Assembly (NCBI GenBank): GCA_963719165.1
Contig: CAVRAV010000001.1
Location: 1,433,478-1,497,477 of the forward strand
Length of the DNA: 64,000 bases
Direction: 5' to 3'
Source of the DNA: an uncultured Actinomycetes bacterium
Lineage (GTDB): Bacteria; Actinomycetota; UBA4738; HRBIN12
The notes beneath the pieces were generated by a model that was given only the letters and a program-made list of their open reading frames with translations, was not told where the DNA came from and did no database searches. Shown here piece after piece: positions 897-37,481 of the stretch (position 1 is its first letter; each line of letters begins with the position of its first letter). The translations under genes were made by a program, and so were the position numbers.

Positions 897-1754
897 TTAC
901 CGTTCCCGCGCCGCACGGAAGAGGGCGCGCAACTCGGCCTCGGGCGCGGTCTCCACGTCGATGCCCCGTTCGGCCGCCATCTCCGTGAACCGTTCGTAAC
1001 GCACCGCGAACGTTCCCACGGTCCGTCGCAGGGCGCTCTCCGCATCGACGCCGCGCTTGCGCGCCACGGCCACCGCCGCGAACAAGACGTCGCCGAGCTC
1101 GGCCTCGGCTTCTTCGGCGCCCTGAGCACGCCCGAGCTCGTCGACTTCTTCGCGCAGCGCCTCCATGGCACCGTCCACGCTGCGCCACTCGAACCCCCAC
1201 CCAGCGGCGCGGCGCTGGACCTTGGCGGCGCGCGCGAGCGCCGGCAGGGTGGCCGGGATGTCGTCGTTCACGCCCTTGCGACCGCCCGACTCGGCCGCCT
1301 TGAGTTTCTCCCAGTTCACGAGGACCTCGTCGGCGTCCGCCACGTCGACGGTGCCGAACACGTGGGGGTGCCGGTAGACGAGCTTGTCGACGAGCCCGCG
1401 CGCCACGTCGTCGACGTCCCAGCGACCCTCGGAGGCCGCGATCTGCGCGTGGAAGACGACCTGCAGCAGGACGTCCCCGAGCTCGTCGCGGATGGCCTCG
1501 TCGTCCTCGGCCTCGACCGCTTCGATGAGCTCGTGCGTCTCCTCGAGGAGGTGCGGGGCGAGGGTCCTGTGGGTCTGCTCGGCGTCCCACGGGCAGCCGC
1601 CCGGCCCGCGCAAGCGGGCCATCACCCTCACCAGATCGAGCAGGCGCCGCCCCTCTTGAGACGAAGGGACCGGGCCCTCGCCGACCCGGGGCTCGGCGTT
1701 CGGGCCTCCGGCGGCCGGCGGCCTGTCGTCGGGGTGGCCGGACGCCTCGGTCAC
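897..1754 (-). CDS. mazG: nucleoside triphosphate pyrophosphohydrolase MazG
   Basis: Has the MARLRGPGGCPWDAEQTHRTL...EETHELIEAVE motif and a tandem MazG domain. The GTG start overlaps the upstream gene stop as GTGA. Confidence 0.85.
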   Translation of the reverse strand: MTEASGHPDDRPPAAGGPNAEPRVGEGPVPSSQEGRRLLDLVRVMARLRGPGGCPWDAEQTHRTLAPHLLEETHELIEAVEAEDDEAIRDELGDVLLQVVFHAQIAASEGRWDVDDVARGLVDKLVYRHPHVFGTVDVADADEVLVNWEKLKAAESGGRKGVNDDIPATLPALARAAKVQRRAAGWGFEWRSVDGAMEALREEVDELGRAQGAEEAEAELGDVLFAAVAVARKRGVDAESALRRTVGTFAVRYERFTEMAAERGIDVETAPEAELRALFRAARER

Positions 1755-2800
1755 GGCGTGGGACTGATGGCGGCGCTCGGGACGTCCGTCGCCGAGCCGG
1801 TGGCGCTCGGGTCCGTGCTCGTGACCGCGACCACCGTCAGGGTCGGGATGTCATAGCGACCGTACTTCGGGTTCACCTCGACGCCTTGGTCCTGCGCCTG
1901 CTTGGTGAGCCAGTCGTTGAAGATCTTGGAGGCCCCGCTTTGGACGAGCTGCGACTTGGCTTTGTCGAACGGCGTGACGGTCTTGTCGAGCAGCTTGATC
2001 ACGTGCCATCCGTACTGGGTCTTGACCGGCTTGGAGACCTCGCCGACCGCCAGAGCGGCGGCGGCCTGTCCGAACTCGGCCACATAGCCCGAGGCCGGGG
2101 ACGAGGGGAGCTTCCCCCCGTTCGTCTTGGCGCTCGGGTCGATGGACACGTCGTTGGCAAGGGCGGCGAAGTCGGCGTCGGTGAAGCCCGGCGCGGTGAC
2201 CTTCTTGTAGACGGCCTGCGCCTCCGCCTGGGTCTTCACGAGGATGTGCTCTACCTCGACGTTCGTGAAGTCGAGGATCTGCTGCTGATACAGGGCCCTC
2301 AGCTGCGCGTCGGTCGACCCGGCCTCGCCGAGCTTCTTCTGGACGTCCTGGAAGAGCAGGACCTCGCGTCCCAATTCGTTGAGGTCGTCGCGTGAGAGGC
2401 CGCTCGACTGGAGCTGCTGGTCCACCTTGTCCGCCCCCAACTGCTGGTCGAGGCTCGCGATGATGGCGGTGAGCGCCTGATCGGTCACGGTAACGTCGTT
2501 CTGGTCGGCGAACTCGCGCACGAAGGCGCCCTGGATCAGGTTGGAGAGCGCGAACCGGTTGCACGCCGCCTCGGCGGACTCCCCCGCCGTCGGCTGGCCG
2601 CATCCGCTCTGATTCAGCGCCCCGATGAAGGTGAACAGCTTCGCCTCGTGGGCCACCTGCTCGTCCGTGATCTGCGTGGATCCGGCGGTCGCGGCCGTCG
2701 TGCCGCTGACAGCCCCGTCGCCCTTGCTGCAGGCAGAGAAGAACAGGGCCGGCACGACGATCGCGGACACGACGATGAGGCGGTTCGTTCGGGGATGCAC
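1751..2800 (-). CDS. parvulin-type peptidyl-prolyl cis-trans isomerase lipoprotein (SurA/PrsA-like)
   Basis: Parvulin motif YGWHVIKL near the C-terminus. Lipoprotein signal MHPRTNRLIVVSAIVVPALFFSAC if the GTG at 2800 is the start. The longest ORF extends to a GTG at 2845. Confidence 0.7.
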   Translation of the reverse strand: MHPRTNRLIVVSAIVVPALFFSACSKGDGAVSGTTAATAGSTQITDEQVAHEAKLFTFIGALNQSGCGQPTAGESAEAACNRFALSNLIQGAFVREFADQNDVTVTDQALTAIIASLDQQLGADKVDQQLQSSGLSRDDLNELGREVLLFQDVQKKLGEAGSTDAQLRALYQQQILDFTNVEVEHILVKTQAEAQAVYKKVTAPGFTDADFAALANDVSIDPSAKTNGGKLPSSPASGYVAEFGQAAAALAVGEVSKPVKTQYGWHVIKLLDKTVTPFDKAKSQLVQSGASKIFNDWLTKQAQDQGVEVNPKYGRYDIPTLTVVAVTSTDPSATGSATDVPSAAISPTP

Positions 2801-2852
2801 GGCAACGAGTTTACGTGAAGCCCACGCCCGGGCCCCCACCGTCACAGAACCG

Positions 2853-5800
2853 TCACGAGACCGGTTCGTCGTCCCCCTTGACCGCTTCCAGTAGCCACCG
2901 CTCGACGAAGCGCACGAGGTCCGTGCCGAAGACGCGCTCCGGCACGAGGTTCAGCGTGTGCGTCTCCTCATGGTAGGTGGCCTTGAAGACGCGTTCCTCG
3001 AGGTCGAAGCGCAGCTCGGGCGGGATCGCCACCGGGCTCAGCCGGACCTGGTCGCGGTACGTCGCTACGTCCTCGATGCCCAGCGCGCGGGCCGTGACCC
3101 GCAGGGAGGCGATCGCGAACAAGGTCTCCACCTGTTGGGGAAGCGCGCCGTAGCGGTCCACGGTCTGCGCGCGGATCTCCTCGAGAGCCGCATGGTCGGC
3201 GGCGAGAGAGATACGGCGGTAGAGCTCCAGGCGCAGCGCCTCCTGAGCGACCCACCCCGGAGGGATGTATGCCTTCACCGGCAGGTCGATACGCAGTTCC
3301 TTGTCCTGGGGGATCTCCTCGCCCTTCATCTCCGCCATGGATTCCTGGAGGATCCGCGCGTACGCATCGAAGCCCACCGCCGCGATGTGACCGTGCTGCT
3401 CGGCGCCCAGGATGTTCCCCGCGCCGCGGATCTCCAGGTCCCGCAGCGCGATCTGGAACCCGCTGCCCAGCGCCTGATGCTTGCTGATCGTGGCGAGCCG
3501 TTCGCGGGCCTCGTCCGTCATCTCGCGCTGCGGTGGGAAGAAGAGGTAGGCGAAGGCCCGCTCCGTCGAGCGGCCCACGCGTCCCCGCAGCTGGTACATC
3601 TGCGCCAGTCCGAGCCGATGCGCGGAGTCGACGATGAGGGTGTTCGCGTTCGGCACGTCGAGGCCCGATTCGATGATGGTGGAACACACGAGGATGTCGG
3701 CGTCTCGGTCCCAGAACCGCATCATCTGGGCCTCGAGGACGTCTTCGTCCATCTTGCCGTGCGCCACGACCACCCGGACGCCGGGCAGCTGGTCCTGGAG
3801 CCAGGCAGCCTGGCGATCGATGGTGGCCACGCGGTTGTGCACCCAGAAGACCTGTCCCTCACGCAGGAGCTCGCGGCGGATCGCACCGAGCGCGAGCCCC
3901 TCGTCGTAGGCGCCCACGTAGGTGAGGACCGGTTGACGGTCCTCCGGCGGGGTATCGATCGTCGACATCTCCCGGATGCCCGTGAGGGCCATCTCGAGCG
4001 TGCGCGGGATCGGCGTGGCGGTCATGGTGAGCACGTCCACGCTCGCGCGGAATTGCTTCAGTCGTTCCTTGTGCCCGACCCCGAAGCGTTGCTCCTCATC
4101 CACGACCAGGAGCCCGAGGTCCTCGAACGCCATGTCCTTGCCGAGGAGCCGGTGGGTACCGATCACCACGTCCACCTTGCCCGCCACCACCTCGGCGACG
4201 ATCGCCTTCTGCTCGGTGGGGCTCACGAATCGGCTGAGCATCTTCACCGTCACCGGGAACGGGGCGAATCGCTCGCTGAAGGTGATGAAGTGCTGCTCGG
4301 CCAGGAGGGTGGTGGGGACCAGCACGGCGACCTGCTTGCCCTCCATCACGGCCTTGAACGCCGCTCGCAGCGCGATCTCTGTCTTGCCGAAACCCACGTC
4401 GCCGCAGATCAGCCGGTCCATGGGCCGCGGCCGTTCCATGTCGCGCTTGACCTCGTCGATGGCCGTGACCTGGTCCCCGGTCTCCTCGTGCGGGAAGGCG
4501 TCTTCGAGCTCCGCCTGCCAGGGGGTGTCGGGCCCGAACGCATGGCCGGGCACCGCCATGCGCACCGTGTAGAGGCGGACGAGCTCGCCGGCCATGTCCT
4601 TCACGGCCTTCTTGACCTTGGCCGTCGCGCGCGTCCAGTCCGAGCCTCCCATGCGATGCACGCGCGGGTGATCGCCGCCCACGTAGCGGGCCACCATCCC
4701 CACCTGGTCCGACGGCACGAACAGCCTGTCCCCCGCCGCGTATTCGAGGATCAGGTAGTCGCGCTCGGCGCCGGCGAGCTCCCTGTGGGTGATCCCCACG
4801 TAGGTGCCCACGCCGTGGATCCGGTGCACCGCGTAGTCGCCCGGCTCCAGCTCATCCGCGATCGACTCGGTCCGCCGGCTCGTGAAGCGCGGTGCCGTTC
4901 GGGTGTGGCGTCGCGAACCGAACAGGTCCTCCTCCGTGGCGACCGCGAGCCGCTCGGCCGGGAACACGAACCCTCGCGTCAGCGGGGCCTCCACCGTCTC
5001 AACCTTTGCGTCCGCGACGACCTCGCTCACCCTGGCGAGCGAGCCGTGGCCCCGAGCGGACAGCACGAGCCGGTACCCCTGCGCGGAGAGCTCCGTGAGG
5101 CGCGCGGCGAGCTCCTGCGGGTTCCCCTGTGCCGTTCCCCAGTGATCGAGGCCGAGGTCCACGCCCTCGGTGAACTCGGTCAGCCTGAGTTGCACGCGAT
5201 CGCCCAGCGCCTCCTCGAGGGGATGGAGGGCCCGCGCCGCAGGCCAGGCGATGGCGTCGGCGAGCGCCTCCCCTTCCTCGTGCGCTTGACGGGCCCGGTC
5301 CAGGGTCCGGTGTGCCTGTGTGACGACCGTCCACGCGCCGTCGGGGAGCAGCTCCGCGGGGGTCGGCAGATGGTCGAACAGGAACGGGGCGAGCGTCTCG
5401 GCCCCCTCAACGAAGAGGCCGTCGGCGAGGCGCTGGAGCTGGTCGGCGAAACGCTCGGCGTGCACGGACGCGGCTTCCCCCGCCCGCGCGCGAAGCGCAT
5501 CGTCCGGGATCAGCTCGCGCACGGGCGGGACATCGACCCGGGCGATCTTCTCGGTGGACAGCTGCGTCGAGGGGACGAACGCGCGCAGGGACTCGATCTC
5601 ATCACCCCAGTACTCCAGCCGAACGGGCCGGCGCGCCGTTCCCGGGAACACGTCCATAACGCCGCCGCGCACGGCGAACTCTCCCCGGTGTTCCACCACG
5701 TCGGCGCGCGCGTAGCCGAGGTCCACCAGCGTGCCGGCGAGGGCGTCCGGAGGCAGTTCGCGGCCAGCCTCGAGCACGAGCGACTCGACGGTGCCGAGCG

Positions 5801-10307: not shown

Positions 10308-10378
10308 TTCCGGGGGGAGGGGTCGAACCTCCATCCCAGGCTCCAAAGGCCCGTGTCTTGCCGTTAGACCACCCCGGA
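10308..10378 (-). tRNA. tRNA-Gln (anticodon UUG)
   Basis: Manual cloverleaf fold: acceptor TCCGGGG/CCCCGGA, D-stem GTCT/AGAC, anticodon stem CGGGC/GCCTG, loop CTTTGGA (U33 then TTG), T-arm GGAGG-TTCGACC-CCTCC. CCA is not encoded. Confidence 0.75.
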
Positions 10379-33657: not shown

Positions 33658-34161
33658 CTAGAGGTCAAGGTACATGCTCAGGGTGAGGACATCGGATCCC
33701 TCCCGGAGCGGCTCGCGATCGTCCTCGTCGAGGGTGAACCCGGCCGATCCGTAGAGGCGACGCGCCGCCGTGTTCCCCTCGGCGATGCGAAGGACCACGC
33801 GCGATGCGCCGCGTTCACGCGCCCAGCCCACCACCGCCTCGACGAGGGCGCGGCCGAGACCGTTCCCCCTCGCCCGGGGTGCCACCCACATCGCGAAGAG
33901 GTTCGCCGCGAGCGGGTCCTCCCCGAAGATCGCGCCGGTGGCGAGGCCGGTGAACGCCGCGTCCGGAACGGGCTCGATCACGAACGTCACGAGGTCCGCT
34001 CCCCACCCCTCCCCCGTGGCCCAGCCTTCCCACCGCCATCGCGGCTGCCCTTCGGTGGCCTCGAGCGTGGACGCGAACGCGTCGGGTGCGTCGCGCAGGG
34101 CGGACAGACGGACGTCCCGCAATCGCTCCCAATCCTGCGGGAGGGCCGCGCGCAGCGTCAC
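33658..34161 (-). CDS. GNAT family N-acetyltransferase
   Basis: VAPRARGNGLGRALV acetyl-CoA motif. The GTG at 34161 overlaps the upstream stop (GTGA). Confidence 0.7.
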   Translation of the reverse strand: MTLRAALPQDWERLRDVRLSALRDAPDAFASTLEATEGQPRWRWEGWATGEGWGADLVTFVIEPVPDAAFTGLATGAIFGEDPLAANLFAMWVAPRARGNGLGRALVEAVVGWARERGASRVVLRIAEGNTAARRLYGSAGFTLDEDDREPLREGSDVLTLSMYLDL

Positions 34162-35153
34162 GAGATGACCCGGACCTCGGCCCGTGCGGCCAGGGCCTCG
34201 GCGCGACCCCGATCCAGACGCCCGGCACCCGGTACCTCGGCGTTCGCGGTAGCGGCCCCCAGCGCGAGCCTGAGCGCACGTGCCCAATCGGCGTCGAGTC
34301 CGGCGGCGAGTCCGGCGGCGAGTCCGGCGTCGAGTCCGGCGGCGAGCCCGGCGTCGAGTCCGACGGCGAGCCCGGCGAGGAAGGCGTCGCCGCTTCCCAC
34401 CGGGTAGCGTCCTCGCACGTAGAGCGTTCCCTCGAAGAGCGTTCCGTCGGGAGTGATGACGACGACGCCGTCCGCCCCGCGCGTGACGATGCCGGCATGG
34501 CCCTCGCCGCCCGCGAGGGCGCGCAACTTCTGCGCCGCCGCGAGCGCGTCGTCGCGGTGCGCGGTGGGAACACCGAGCAACTCGCTCGCTTCGGCGGCGT
34601 TCACCTTCACGACGTCCGGCTCGGCCTCGAGGGCAAGGCGGAGCCGGTCGCCCTCCGAGTCGAGCGCCACCCGCACGCCTGCGGCGCGGGCCTCGGCGAC
34701 AACCGAGCGGTACCCGTCGCCCGGGGTGCCCCGCGGCGTCGATCCGCTGATCGTGAGCCATCCGCCGGGAACCCATGCGTTCGCGGCGGCGTCGACGAGC
34801 TCCACCCACGCGGCCTCCGGAACCTCCGACCCATGCTCGTAGAACTCCGTGAGCCCTCCCGTCTCCCGATCTGCCACGCTCAGCGACGACCGGTTCTCGC
34901 CATGGGTCCACACGCACTCGCACGGGACCCCTTCTGCGCTCAACATGTCCGTGAGCCACTGGCCCGTGTGCCCACGCATCAGGGCGACCGCCCGGACCTC
35001 GGCACCCAAGGCGCTCGCGGCCCGCGCCACGTTCAGCCCCTTGCCGCCCGCGACATCCACGAAGCCCGTCGGACGGTGGATGGCTCCGCGCACCAACCGG
35101 TCGATCTCGAACAGCTTGTCGACCGACGGGTTCGCCGCGAGGCAGACGATCAC
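34158..35153 (-). CDS. 1-phosphofructokinase family hexose-phosphate kinase (FruK/LacC/tagatose-6-P kinase-like, PfkB superfamily)
   Basis: N-terminal IVCLAANPSVDKLFEIDRLVRGAIHR and C-terminal GSGDAF. The ATG overlaps the upstream stop (ATGA). Confidence 0.8.
   Translation of the reverse strand: MIVCLAANPSVDKLFEIDRLVRGAIHRPTGFVDVAGGKGLNVARAASALGAEVRAVALMRGHTGQWLTDMLSAEGVPCECVWTHGENRSSLSVADRETGGLTEFYEHGSEVPEAAWVELVDAAANAWVPGGWLTISGSTPRGTPGDGYRSVVAEARAAGVRVALDSEGDRLRLALEAEPDVVKVNAAEASELLGVPTAHRDDALAAAQKLRALAGGEGHAGIVTRGADGVVVITPDGTLFEGTLYVRGRYPVGSGDAFLAGLAVGLDAGLAAGLDAGLAAGLAAGLDADWARALRLALGAATANAEVPGAGRLDRGRAEALAARAEVRVIS
34291..34378 (-). repeat. in-frame tandem 12-nt coding repeat (GAGTCCGGCGGC/GAGTCCGGCGTC, ~7 units) encoding (AGLD/AGLA)n in the kinase
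   Basis: Visible directly. The protein reads GLAVGLDAGLAAGLDAGLAAGLAAGLDAD. Confidence 0.7.
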
Positions 35154-36088
35154 GCGGCGGATCCTCGCTCGAGCGTTTCGAGGACTTCATCCATGGACGG
35201 CTGCCCTTCGGTGCCGCCCGGGGTGCGTGTCGAGAGCACGCCGCAGGCGTTGCCGATCTCCAAGCAGCGCCGCAGCGGCATGTCGGCGAGCCACGCGGCC
35301 AGGAAGGCGGCGTCGAACGAATCACCCGCTCCGGTCGTGTCGAGGACGCGGCCCGGCATCGCGCGGACGACCGCCGTCTCACCCGTCGTGGATGCCATCG
35401 CGCCGTCCGGCCCTCGCTTCACTACGACCATCGATGCCATAGCGCGCAGCCGCCCCATGGCGTCGTTGAGATCGGAGATGTGCGCGATGCTCATCGCCTC
35501 CATCGCGTTGGGCAGGAACACGTCGACCCGCGGGAGCAGCGCGTTCAACCCGGCGTCCCATCCGCCGTCGGGATCCCAGTTCGGATCCAACGATGTGCTT
35601 CCGCCGCTCGCGTGCACGGCGTCGAAGATCTCTGGGAGATCCGGCTGGAGCGCCCGCTGGAGGAAGTACGAGCTGACGTGGACGTGGCGAGCGGACGCCA
35701 ACAGCTCCGGGTCGATGAGCTCGGCACGGAGGTCCGCCGCGGTGCCGATCGCCGTGAGCATGGCCCGGTCGCCGGGGAGCGAGAAGACCACGGTGAGCCC
35801 CGACGGCCGCACGGGGTCCGTGATCAGCCCGCGGGTGTTCACGCCGTGGCGCGTGAGCTCCTCGCGGAGGTACCGGCCGAAGAGGTCGTCGCCGACCACC
35901 CCGCAGATCGCCACGCGCAGGCCCAGTCTCGCGGCACCGCAAGCGAGGATGGCCCCGGAGCCTCCCACGGTGAGGGTGGCCTCCTCGACGATGCGCTCGG
36001 CCTGACCGAACGCGGGCACGACCTCGCCGCCGCGCAGCACCAGATCCGGGTTCGCGTCGCCCAGAACCAGCAGGTCGAAATCCACCAC
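35150..36088 (-). CDS. PfkB family carbohydrate kinase (ribokinase/fructokinase/ketohexokinase-like)
   Basis: Two-glycine motif and C-terminal TTGAGDSF. GTG start at 36088. Confidence 0.8.
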   Translation of the reverse strand: MVDFDLLVLGDANPDLVLRGGEVVPAFGQAERIVEEATLTVGGSGAILACGAARLGLRVAICGVVGDDLFGRYLREELTRHGVNTRGLITDPVRPSGLTVVFSLPGDRAMLTAIGTAADLRAELIDPELLASARHVHVSSYFLQRALQPDLPEIFDAVHASGGSTSLDPNWDPDGGWDAGLNALLPRVDVFLPNAMEAMSIAHISDLNDAMGRLRAMASMVVVKRGPDGAMASTTGETAVVRAMPGRVLDTTGAGDSFDAAFLAAWLADMPLRRCLEIGNACGVLSTRTPGGTEGQPSMDEVLETLERGSAA

Positions 36089-36175: not shown

Positions 36176-37042
36176 ATGCGAAGGCGTCCGGAGATCGAGC
36201 TGGCCCACGGCGATATCACCGCACAGAACGTGGACGCGATCGTGAACGCGGCGAACACCGAACTCGTGCCCGGCGGTGGCGTCGACGGAGCCATCGCGCG
36301 CGCGGCCGGGCCGGGGGCGCTCGCCGAGCGTCTTGCCATCGCGCAGGAGCGCGGCCACCCGCCGCTCGCCACCGGTGAGGCCATCGCCACGAGTGGGGGC
36401 GATCTTCCCGCCCGCTGGATCATCCACACCGCCGGTCCGGTCTACTCCGGAACCGAACGCGATCGGGGGTTGCTCACGGCAAGTCACCGGTCCTGCCTGC
36501 GCGTGGCGGATGAACTGGGCGCCCGGGTCGTCGCTTTCCCCGCCATCTCGACGGGCGTCTACGGCTACCCGCTCGAGCTCGCTGCGCCGATCGCGATCGG
36601 CGCCGTGCTAGAAGCCGAGACGGCGGTTCGGCGGGTCCGCTTCGTCTTGTTCGACACGGTCGCCCTGGAGGCGTTTCGGACCTCGCTGGTAGCATCCGGA
36701 ACTGCGATGGGCGACGAACTCTCCAGCGTCAAGGGCGTCTACGACCGGCTGGGTCAGATCCAGCTGGTGGACTGTCGCGAGCCGTACGAATGGGAAGCGG
36801 GGCGCGTGAAGGGCGCCGTCCACATCCCCCTCAACGACATCATGGCCGGAGCAGGCAAGGACCTGGACAAGAATAGGTCCGTGGCCGTGATCTGCCGTTC
36901 CGGCAACCGCAGCGAGCTCGCCACGATGATGCTGCAAGCGCGAGGGTTCGAGGCGCACAACGTCGAAGGCGGGATGGAGGCGTGGGCCGCAGAGGGCCTT
37001 CCCTTCGAAGCCGCGGACGGCTCGCCGGGAAGCGTGGCCTGA
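36176..37042 (+). CDS. macro domain (O-acetyl-ADP-ribose deacetylase-like) fused to a single-domain rhodanese sulfurtransferase
   Basis: Macro: GDITAQNVDAIVNAANTELVPGGGVDGAIARAAG...IIHTAGPVY...AFPAISTGVYGYP. Rhodanese: IQLVDCREPYEWEAGRVKGAVHIPL...VAVICRSGNRSE with the catalytic Cys. A single continuous frame. The ATG could be 36137 or 36176. Confidence 0.75.
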   Translation: MRRRPEIELAHGDITAQNVDAIVNAANTELVPGGGVDGAIARAAGPGALAERLAIAQERGHPPLATGEAIATSGGDLPARWIIHTAGPVYSGTERDRGLLTASHRSCLRVADELGARVVAFPAISTGVYGYPLELAAPIAIGAVLEAETAVRRVRFVLFDTVALEAFRTSLVASGTAMGDELSSVKGVYDRLGQIQLVDCREPYEWEAGRVKGAVHIPLNDIMAGAGKDLDKNRSVAVICRSGNRSELATMMLQARGFEAHNVEGGMEAWAAEGLPFEAADGSPGSVA

Positions 37043-37049
37043 GCACTCC

Positions 37050-37481
37050 TCAGGCGCGGAACCGCCGGTAGACGGGCGTGTCCCCTTCGTACGTCGTGGC
37101 CACCGCTTCCGTGACGTCGCACACGTAGAAGGCCAGCGGGTACGAGGCCGAGAAAGGACGTGCCTGCGCCGCCGGCTCGTCCGGCTGGACACGCAGCATC
37201 GTCCCCCGCACCATGAACTCGCCCCCGGTGCCCTCGTGGTTGTCCATGGGCGTGTGCAGCGCGTACCGCCCGTCGCGCGCGATCTCCGCGACCTTGGGAC
37301 TTCCGGCCCGGCAGCAGATGGCGAGCTGCCCGCCGCCGAACCACGGAGACACCGGGTGCACGCGGGGCGCGCCGTCGCGCCGCAGCGTCGCATGGAAGAC
37401 GACCGCGCCTCCGATCCGGTCGCGACCGAACGCCGCCAGCTCGGGTGCGGCCGCCTCGAAGGCCTCCCAGGTCATCCCCAT
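37050..37481 (-). CDS. pyridoxamine 5'-phosphate oxidase-like FMN-binding split-barrel protein
   Basis: MGMTWEAFEAAAPELAAF...HPVSPWF pattern. The ATG at 37481 is internal to the track ORF. Confidence 0.55.
   Translation of the reverse strand: MGMTWEAFEAAAPELAAFGRDRIGGAVVFHATLRRDGAPRVHPVSPWFGGGQLAICCRAGSPKVAEIARDGRYALHTPMDNHEGTGGEFMVRGTMLRVQPDEPAAQARPFSASYPLAFYVCDVTEAVATTYEGDTPVYRRFRA

Follow-up and report, generated by a model that had tools for sequence, protein, structure and literature searches.

We analysed a window of 64,000 nucleotides (nt) from contig CAVRAV010000001.1 of an uncultured Actinomycetes bacterium, focusing on one gene, a single unbroken open reading frame (ORF) of 288 codons plus TGA, in which a macro domain is joined to a rhodanese domain (Table 1). 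The ATG at 36176 was taken as the start, since it matches the N-termini of homologues. In Pfam, the Macro family (PF01661) covers residues 23-140, with an E value of 7.7e-36, a score of 123.1 bits against a cutoff of 22 and the whole profile aligned (1-118 of 118). Rhodanese (PF00581) follows at residues 189-273 (E 7.1e-19, 68.6 bits, cutoff 22.2). A first-pass annotation, made from the letters of this DNA, had described one continuous ORF with macro motifs and an intact CRSGNRS loop. The frame is indeed uninterrupted, and every motif that it quoted is found: GDIT at residues 12-15, NAAN at 24-27, GGGVDGAI at 33-40, TGVYGYP at 126-132 and CRSGNRS at 240-246. Judging by these motifs and by the invariant residues, both domains look catalytically competent, as had been supposed.

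Table 1. Coordinates of the fused gene, its parts and its neighbours in the window.
Feature	Position	Strand	Evidence and remarks
Fused macro-rhodanese ORF	36176..37042	+	288 codons plus stop; protein clusters P0001-P0004 of like architecture, 71-90% identity
Macro-derived part, YmdB/MacroD type, residues 1-171, ending at conserved Leu171 codon CTG	36176..36688	+	Pfam, PDB, superposition, junction alignment
Macro catalytic motif N27-x6-G-G-V-D37	36254..36286	+	N27, G35, V36, D37 invariant in 68/68; G34 is G in 66/68
Macro motif G127-V-Y-G130, diphosphate/distal-ribose loop	36554..36565	+	G127, G130 invariant; 128 is V/I/A; 129 is Y/F
TGGTAGCAT, extended -10-like box, putative former rhodanese promoter, now inside the ORF	36687..36695	+	TGnTAnnnT in 58/66 species loci; holds GTA codon V172
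Six-codon linker V172-A-S-G-T-A177, formerly intergenic/promoter DNA	36689..36706	+	Fused versus split DNA alignments
ATG of Met178, ancestral rhodanese start, possible internal start	36707..36709	+	Aligns with the start of separate 111-aa rhodanese genes
Rhodanese-derived part, residues 178-288	36707..37039	+	Pfam; 79-89% identity to stand-alone rhodaneses of L003 and L006
Rhodanese active-site loop C240-R-S-G-N-R245-S246, six-residue	36893..36913	+	C240, R241, G243, R245, S246 invariant in 68/68
TACCAT, -10-like hexamer, exactly 6 nt 5' of the macro start codon	36164..36169	+	TAnnnT there in 44/64 species loci
PfkB-family sugar kinase, divergent; second PfkB at 34158-35153 (-)	35150..36088	-	Pfam PfkB, 174 and 109 bits
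143-aa gene, convergent, weakly PPOX/F420-class-like	37050..37481	-	PNPOx_N 23.8 bits, below cutoff

The macro half has E. coli YmdB as its best PDB match (5cb3, E 1.3e-35). Superposed on the YmdB structures 5cms and 5cb3, the AlphaFold model gives a template modelling (TM) score of 0.91, a root-mean-square deviation of 1.6-1.7 A and 42-44% identity. YmdB and human MacroD1 and MacroD2 are MacroD-type macrodomains, which act as O-acetyl-ADP-ribose (ADP, adenosine diphosphate) deacetylases and mono-ADP-ribosyl hydrolases, and the catalytic signature of MacroD-type deacetylases is Nx6GG[V/L/I]D together with G[V/I/A][Y/F]G. This signature is present as N27-TELVPG-GGVD37 and G127-V-Y-G130, and N27, D37, G127 and G130 do not vary across 68 aligned macro sequences of the lineage. 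The window protein resembles YmdB, MacroD1 and MacroD2 in sequence, fold and both motifs; it differs in bearing a C-terminal rhodanese and in Ala41, which replaces a conserved His.

As for the rhodanese half, its relatives in PDB range from E 1.7e-14 (3tp9) to 8.5e-9 (GlpE). The nearest are the rhodanese domains of persulfide-dioxygenase fusions (PRF; BpPRF 5ve3 and 3tp9) and of coenzyme A (CoA)-persulfide reductases, plus GlpE. The catalytic Cys opens a six-residue loop of the form CRxGx[R/T], whose key residues are invariant in the lineage. In NCBIfam, the GlpE and PspE equivalog models reach 41.3 and 32.1 bits against a cutoff of 102 each, so that the domain is a rhodanese outside both equivalogs. 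Neither GlpE nor PspE is thus its ortholog, although it shares with them, and with the PRF and CoA-persulfide-reductase rhodaneses, a length of approximately 100 residues and a catalytic Cys in a six-residue loop. PRF proteins likewise join a rhodanese to a partner enzyme. Here, however, the partner is a macro domain rather than an enzyme of sulfur metabolism, and it lies N-terminal of the rhodanese, connected by six residues of former promoter DNA.

Five further independent contigs, each from a different sample (L001, L087, L088, L089 and L090), carry the same fused frame; their sources are the NCBI metagenome-assembled genomes (MAGs) GCA_038249195.1 and GCA_036520695.1 and the JGI metagenomes 3300080942, 3300031997 and 3300031834. 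Most relatives present another picture. We scanned GTDB with a rhodanese alignment, using one genome per species; the 80 loci obtained all belong to MAGs of uncultured Actinomycetota. Of these 80 species loci with the orthologous rhodanese, about 68 have a macro gene immediately upstream in the same orientation, and in about 65 of these 68 pairs the two are separate genes, with a spacer of 16-126 nt. The exceptions are L007, a genuine fusion, and L037 and L076, which are artefacts (see below), leaving one genuine fusion among 80 species representatives. Separate genes were what the first-pass annotation had named as evidence against its fusion; they are the rule in the related species and not in the window lineage.

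In the closest stand-alone cases, the macro proteins P0008 and P0009 (72% identity), a separate rhodanese gene of 111 codons comes next and PfkB kinases are divergent upstream, and stand-alone rhodaneses begin at the residue equivalent to Met178 of the fusion. One such split pair, on CAWEPI010000013.1 (L003/L008), is orthologous to the two halves (73% identity for macro, 89% for rhodanese) and has similar PfkB neighbours and promoter boxes. There, however, two genes stand a stop codon and 45 nt apart, and the window lacks 39 nt of that stretch. The adjacency of macro and rhodanese persists down to approximately 55% protein identity while the flanking genes reshuffle.

Other genes are inserted between macro and rhodanese in L009, L039, L079 and L091. 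The last of these (996-4556 of a GCA_050257835.1 contig) keeps the PfkB-macro layout and has around 2.9 kb between the two genes, filled by a sigma-70 family factor and two Tricorn-N/PD40 beta-propeller genes. This assembly is labelled Planctomycetaceae, a label that seems at odds with the otherwise actinobacterial distribution.

The first-pass annotation had regarded the fusion as rare and uncharacterised, and the wider searches agree. Among the best 150 of 1.84 billion cluster representatives, with matches down to about 130 bits, no further macro-rhodanese fusion appeared; P0209 in this set is macro only and P0248 is a multi-rhodanese protein. A junction-specific pattern scan of metagenome contigs returned one match, the already known L089, and an exact look-up found no record of the window protein sequence. 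The literature searched yielded no paper that connects macro domains to PF00581 rhodaneses; closest is a report of viral DUF4326-Macro proteins (PMC9503650).

Comparison of fused and split genes at the codon level locates the junction. In fused genes the macro C-terminus is native as far as a conserved Leu (AFRTSL in the window, FRQAL or FRTAL in split genes). The CTG codon of this Leu is followed directly by GTAGCAT, which in split genomes lies in the spacer as part of CTGGTAGCAT. Measured against L008, the deletion is 39 nt. The 18 nt left (36689-36706) are translated as VASGTA and lead into the old start at 36707. An earlier candidate reading, in which RTSL was former intergenic DNA joined through a CGC microhomology, was dropped. 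Since split relatives have native FRTAL or FRQAL macro C-termini, the crossover is placed at CTGG and VASGTA alone is taken as formerly intergenic.

The origin is best explained as follows. The ancestor had an apparently leaderless macro gene of the YmdB/MacroD type, then a short spacer and, under an extended -10 promoter of its own, a single-domain rhodanese gene of 111 codons. A deletion of 39 nt then occurred between two CTGG microhomologies, one formed by the last conserved Leu codon of the macro gene (CTG-G) and the other by the CTGG of the promoter box CTGGTAGCAT. It took away the final codons of the macro gene together with its stop, and most of the spacer. What was left of the promoter and leader, 18 nt, came to be read in frame, as a linker into Met178. 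Whether the pair is split or fused appears to be decided by the reading frame across the -10 box. In the split loci L010 (3380-4001) and L046, the macro ORF extends to a stop in or beside the rhodanese -10 box, e.g. cgcTGAtaggatt, and the spacer is just 16-18 nt. Because the domains are separate in nearly all relatives and a 39-nt deletion made it, the fusion is best regarded as recent and local, derived from two adjacent genes, and not as an ancient dedicated bifunctional enzyme.

Furthermore, we computed a neighbour-joining tree for PfkB (the adjacent kinase), macro and rhodanese (579 columns, 500 bootstraps), which is a distance-based tree of short proteins. The fused window, L007 and L089 form a clade with 99.6% bootstrap, and the split L008 is sister to this clade with 100%. 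The fused L087 groups instead with the split L016 and L017 (94%). A single origin was rejected in this tree, where a clade of all fused sequences has 0% bootstrap; in a tree of macro and rhodanese only, L008 has no resolved placement. The tree separates the fused sequences and a deletion cannot revert, which indicates two independent fusions at the same microhomology.

In terms of promoters, the motif TGnTAnnnT, which we take to be an extended -10 element of the actinobacterial type, is found in 58 of 66 species loci, mostly 7-13 nt ahead of the rhodanese start codon; the background rate predicts 0.004 per window. Its commonest form is TGGTAGCAT. In 44 of 64 loci, a TA(C/G)(C/G)AT hexamer precedes the macro start by exactly 6 nt, the classic signature of a leaderless transcript. 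With separate -10-like boxes before both, each gene seems to have its own promoter. A scan for E. coli-type sigma-70 promoters and terminators between 35900 and 37700 returned nothing, as expected for an actinobacterium of 70% GC.

All five fused sequences keep the box, as TGGTAGCAT or, in L088, as TGGTAGCCT, and also the ATG of Met178. The box holds the only GTA codon of the gene (V172), which is kept in all fused sequences, and GTA makes up 1.9% of Val codons in the window genes. As the -10 box and the ATG survive within the ORF, an internal, near-leaderless transcript may still supply free rhodanese.

In fused-clade comparisons with a synonymous divergence (dS) of 0.5-0.9, the rhodanese has a ratio of nonsynonymous to synonymous divergence (dN/dS) of 0.05-0.10 and the macro domain one of 0.14-0.22. 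The closest pair, the window and L007 (dS about 0.2), has a macro dN/dS of 0.34. The low ratios in this clade show purifying selection on both halves since the fusion. AlphaFold folds both domains, with a mean predicted local distance difference test score (pLDDT) of 88 and a helix across the junction (residues 161-181); no solved structure spanning both domains was found in PDB. The predicted product is a two-headed enzyme, with each half working as it does when separate. The N-terminal half would be an ADP-ribose-binding enzyme that hydrolyses ADP-ribose esters, acting as a deacetylase of O-acetyl-ADP-ribose and as a mono-ADP-ribosyl hydrolase. The C-terminal half would carry a persulfide on Cys240, as a thiosulfate/persulfide sulfurtransferase. 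Both activities are predictions from the sequence and the model.

The ancestral layout around the pair has one or more PfkB kinases divergent upstream, then macro, rhodanese, sometimes the convergent 143-aa PPOX/F420-class-like gene, and finally glcDEF-like genes. PfkB adjoins the pair in 41-48 of the 80 species loci and the 143-aa gene in 20. GlcD-, GlcE- and GlcF-like genes, all scoring below the equivalog cutoffs, lie downstream on the same strand in 57-63 loci, for example at L003 5951-8446, L006 5999-8505 and L087 1854-5448. The window and L001 have lost them here, in which they differ from most split relatives, and the fused L087 retains a GlcD-like gene downstream. Sugar transporters, GH114, alcohol dehydrogenase, YaaA and pirin are further recurrent neighbours. 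In five species (L018-L021 and L030, at approximately 4341-5126), a YaaA-family peroxide-stress gene (PF03883) stands between the rhodanese and the GlcD-like gene.

In the window itself, the two minus-strand PfkB genes bear out the claim of a divergent sugar-kinase operon. The label of PPOX-like flavoprotein, given to the gene after the fusion, is only weakly supported. The gene is there, convergent and with a weak likeness, but all PPOX scores are below cutoff (PNPOx_N 23.8 bits against 28.1; TIGR03667 at 34 bits and the F420-PPOX models also sub-threshold). The second PfkB gene contains a tandem repeat of 12 nt (34289-34377, 7.4 copies, 87% matches), which encodes an (A-G-L-D / A-G-L-A)n insertion near the C-terminus. 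Far from the locus, one tRNA gene (10308-10378, minus strand) is the sole Rfam match at gathering threshold in the window.

A further suggestion of the first-pass annotation was a link between ADP-ribose or metabolites derived from nicotinamide adenine dinucleotide (NAD) and persulfide chemistry. In a Rosetta-stone reading of this kind, macro and rhodanese would belong to one pathway and the fusion would have been selected because it couples them. For instance, the substrates of the macro domain might be ADP-ribosylated or O-acyl-ADP-ribose species connected with thiol or sulfur stress, or ADP-ribose binding and the Cys240 persulfide might regulate each other. The adjacency holds in about 68 of the 80 species and throughout a deep lineage, despite reshuffled flanks, and this fits such coupling, but each gene has a promoter-like box of its own. 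The fusion arose twice independently, which fits it as well, but the CTGG microhomology also offers a mechanical explanation of the recurrence, and the fused form is very rare in both the species set and the metagenome scan. Purifying selection acts on both domains after fusion, while the predicted TM score (pTM) of just 0.65 gives no confident fixed orientation or interface between them.

Nor does the neighbourhood or the literature searched favour coupling. Within about 4 kb of the pair, no gene for a sirtuin, an ADP-ribosyltransferase or another NAD-consuming enzyme is recurrent, in a clustering of neighbour ORFs that is noisy (shadow ORFs in high-GC DNA) and of which the 10 of 30 clusters resembling real genes were scanned with Pfam, with no sirtuin or ADP-ribosyltransferase among them. 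The literature search gave no support for a macro-rhodanese link. We consider selection for coupling rather unlikely. The conserved adjacency and the repeated fusion hint that the two halves are functionally linked. A near-neutral fusion that is tolerated would agree just as well with how rare the fused form is, with each gene having its own promoter and with a hot spot at the microhomology. A bolder version, to which we give still less credit, would make macro and rhodanese an unrecognised functional unit, linking the turnover of ADP-ribose and O-acyl-ADP-ribose (products of sirtuins and ADP-ribosylation) to persulfide and thiol chemistry, possibly feeding or regulating a GlcDEF-like 2-hydroxyacid oxidase, with both fusions selected.

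An artefact of assembly or sequencing, in which a lost stop or a frameshift had merged what are two genes in the real genome, is very improbable for the window. A protein search of 5.8 billion proteins gave seven clusters annotated as Macro plus Rhodanese, and in four of them (P0001-P0004) both domains align cleanly at full length without frame breaks. Precisely such pseudo-fusions do exist in relatives. P0005 (L002 6001-6891, the same as L076) and L037 (3353-4330) are apparent fusions made by frameshifts, with the real macro C-terminus and stop in another frame, and the tails of P0006 and P0007 are frameshifted, which makes their fusion suspect. The window junction, by contrast, is a clean in-frame deletion with no frameshift. 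Its length and frame are identical in the independent contigs from separate samples, and members of its own fused clade (the window, L007, L088 and L089) show numerous synonymous differences (dS up to about 0.9). The artefact was ruled out for the window clade by these independent contigs and the clean junction, and confirmed for P0005/L002/L076 and L037. We therefore take the window-type fusion as genuine and several look-alikes in the databases as not. L002/L076, L037 and P0005-P0007 come from long-read MAG assemblies with contig names of the "contig_N" style. Frameshift pseudo-fusions in long-read MAGs inflate database counts of the macro-rhodanese architecture, which calls for caution.

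Equally little credit goes to the idea that the C-terminal domain is a phosphatase of the Cdc25/Acr2 type, dephosphorylating an ADP-ribose derivative such as ADP-ribose-1''-phosphate. A six-residue C-X4-R loop is of sulfurtransferase length, while the seven-residue C-X5-R loop belongs to Cdc25/Acr2 phosphatases and arsenate reductases, and the loop here is C-X4-R (CRSGNR). A weak similarity to Cdc25 in the PDB search (E about 6e-4) spans only the N-terminal 30 residues or so (query 16-45), away from the active-site loop, and the top matches are the persulfide-related rhodaneses and GlpE named above. The idea draws on DNA viruses, in which DUF4326, a family of the rhodanese-phosphatase superfamily, is fused to Macro, SLOG or NADAR (PMC9503650). 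Those fusions, like ours, join a macro domain to a member of the wider rhodanese-phosphatase fold class. They involve another family, a predicted phosphatase of viral conflict systems, whereas ours has a canonical PF00581 domain in a chromosomal neighbourhood of sugar and 2-hydroxyacid genes, and no DUF4326 match in the protein (Pfam, E <= 0.01). A viral or defence-island setting was not seen, the neighbours being sugar kinases, transporters and glcDEF-like genes.

We thus favour, with good confidence, the account of a genuine fusion restricted to a few uncultured actinobacteria of soil, formed by a microhomology deletion and yielding a two-headed enzyme, with an internal rhodanese start as a possible feature. 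Several points weigh against it in part. The window junction is known from assembled sequence rather than from its reads, and the internal start is deduced from sequence conservation. Retention of the -10 box is in part built in, as the junction lies within it, and the total synonymous divergence is modest, which makes the retention of GTA suggestive and not decisive. The spacing from box to ATG, 7-12 nt, also exceeds the 6 nt typical of strictly leaderless genes. As for the macro domain, the O-acetyl-ADP-ribose deacetylase model of NCBIfam (NF001664) scores 196.9 bits against a cutoff of 200. Furthermore, residue 41 (36296-36298), after the catalytic Asp37 motif, is His in 46 of the 68 sequences, Thr in 21 and Ala in the window protein only. 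Lastly, the two domains have no confidently predicted mutual orientation.

Both halves are ordinary enzyme types, and the protein is not a new kind of system. What is new is the fused architecture, unmet among those best 150 representatives or in the literature searched, the macro-rhodanese gene pair, conserved in at least 65 species of an uncultured Actinomycetota lineage, and the apparent occurrence of the same fusion twice at a promoter microhomology. The locus offers a clear case of promoter DNA recruited as a protein linker, possibly still serving as a promoter. The pair also provides a guilt-by-association lead for bacterial macrodomains of the YmdB type. If the pairing reflects a shared function, it would give a first handle on these macrodomains in bacteria without obvious ADP-ribosylation partners, and would tie NAD-derived metabolites to sulfur-transfer chemistry.

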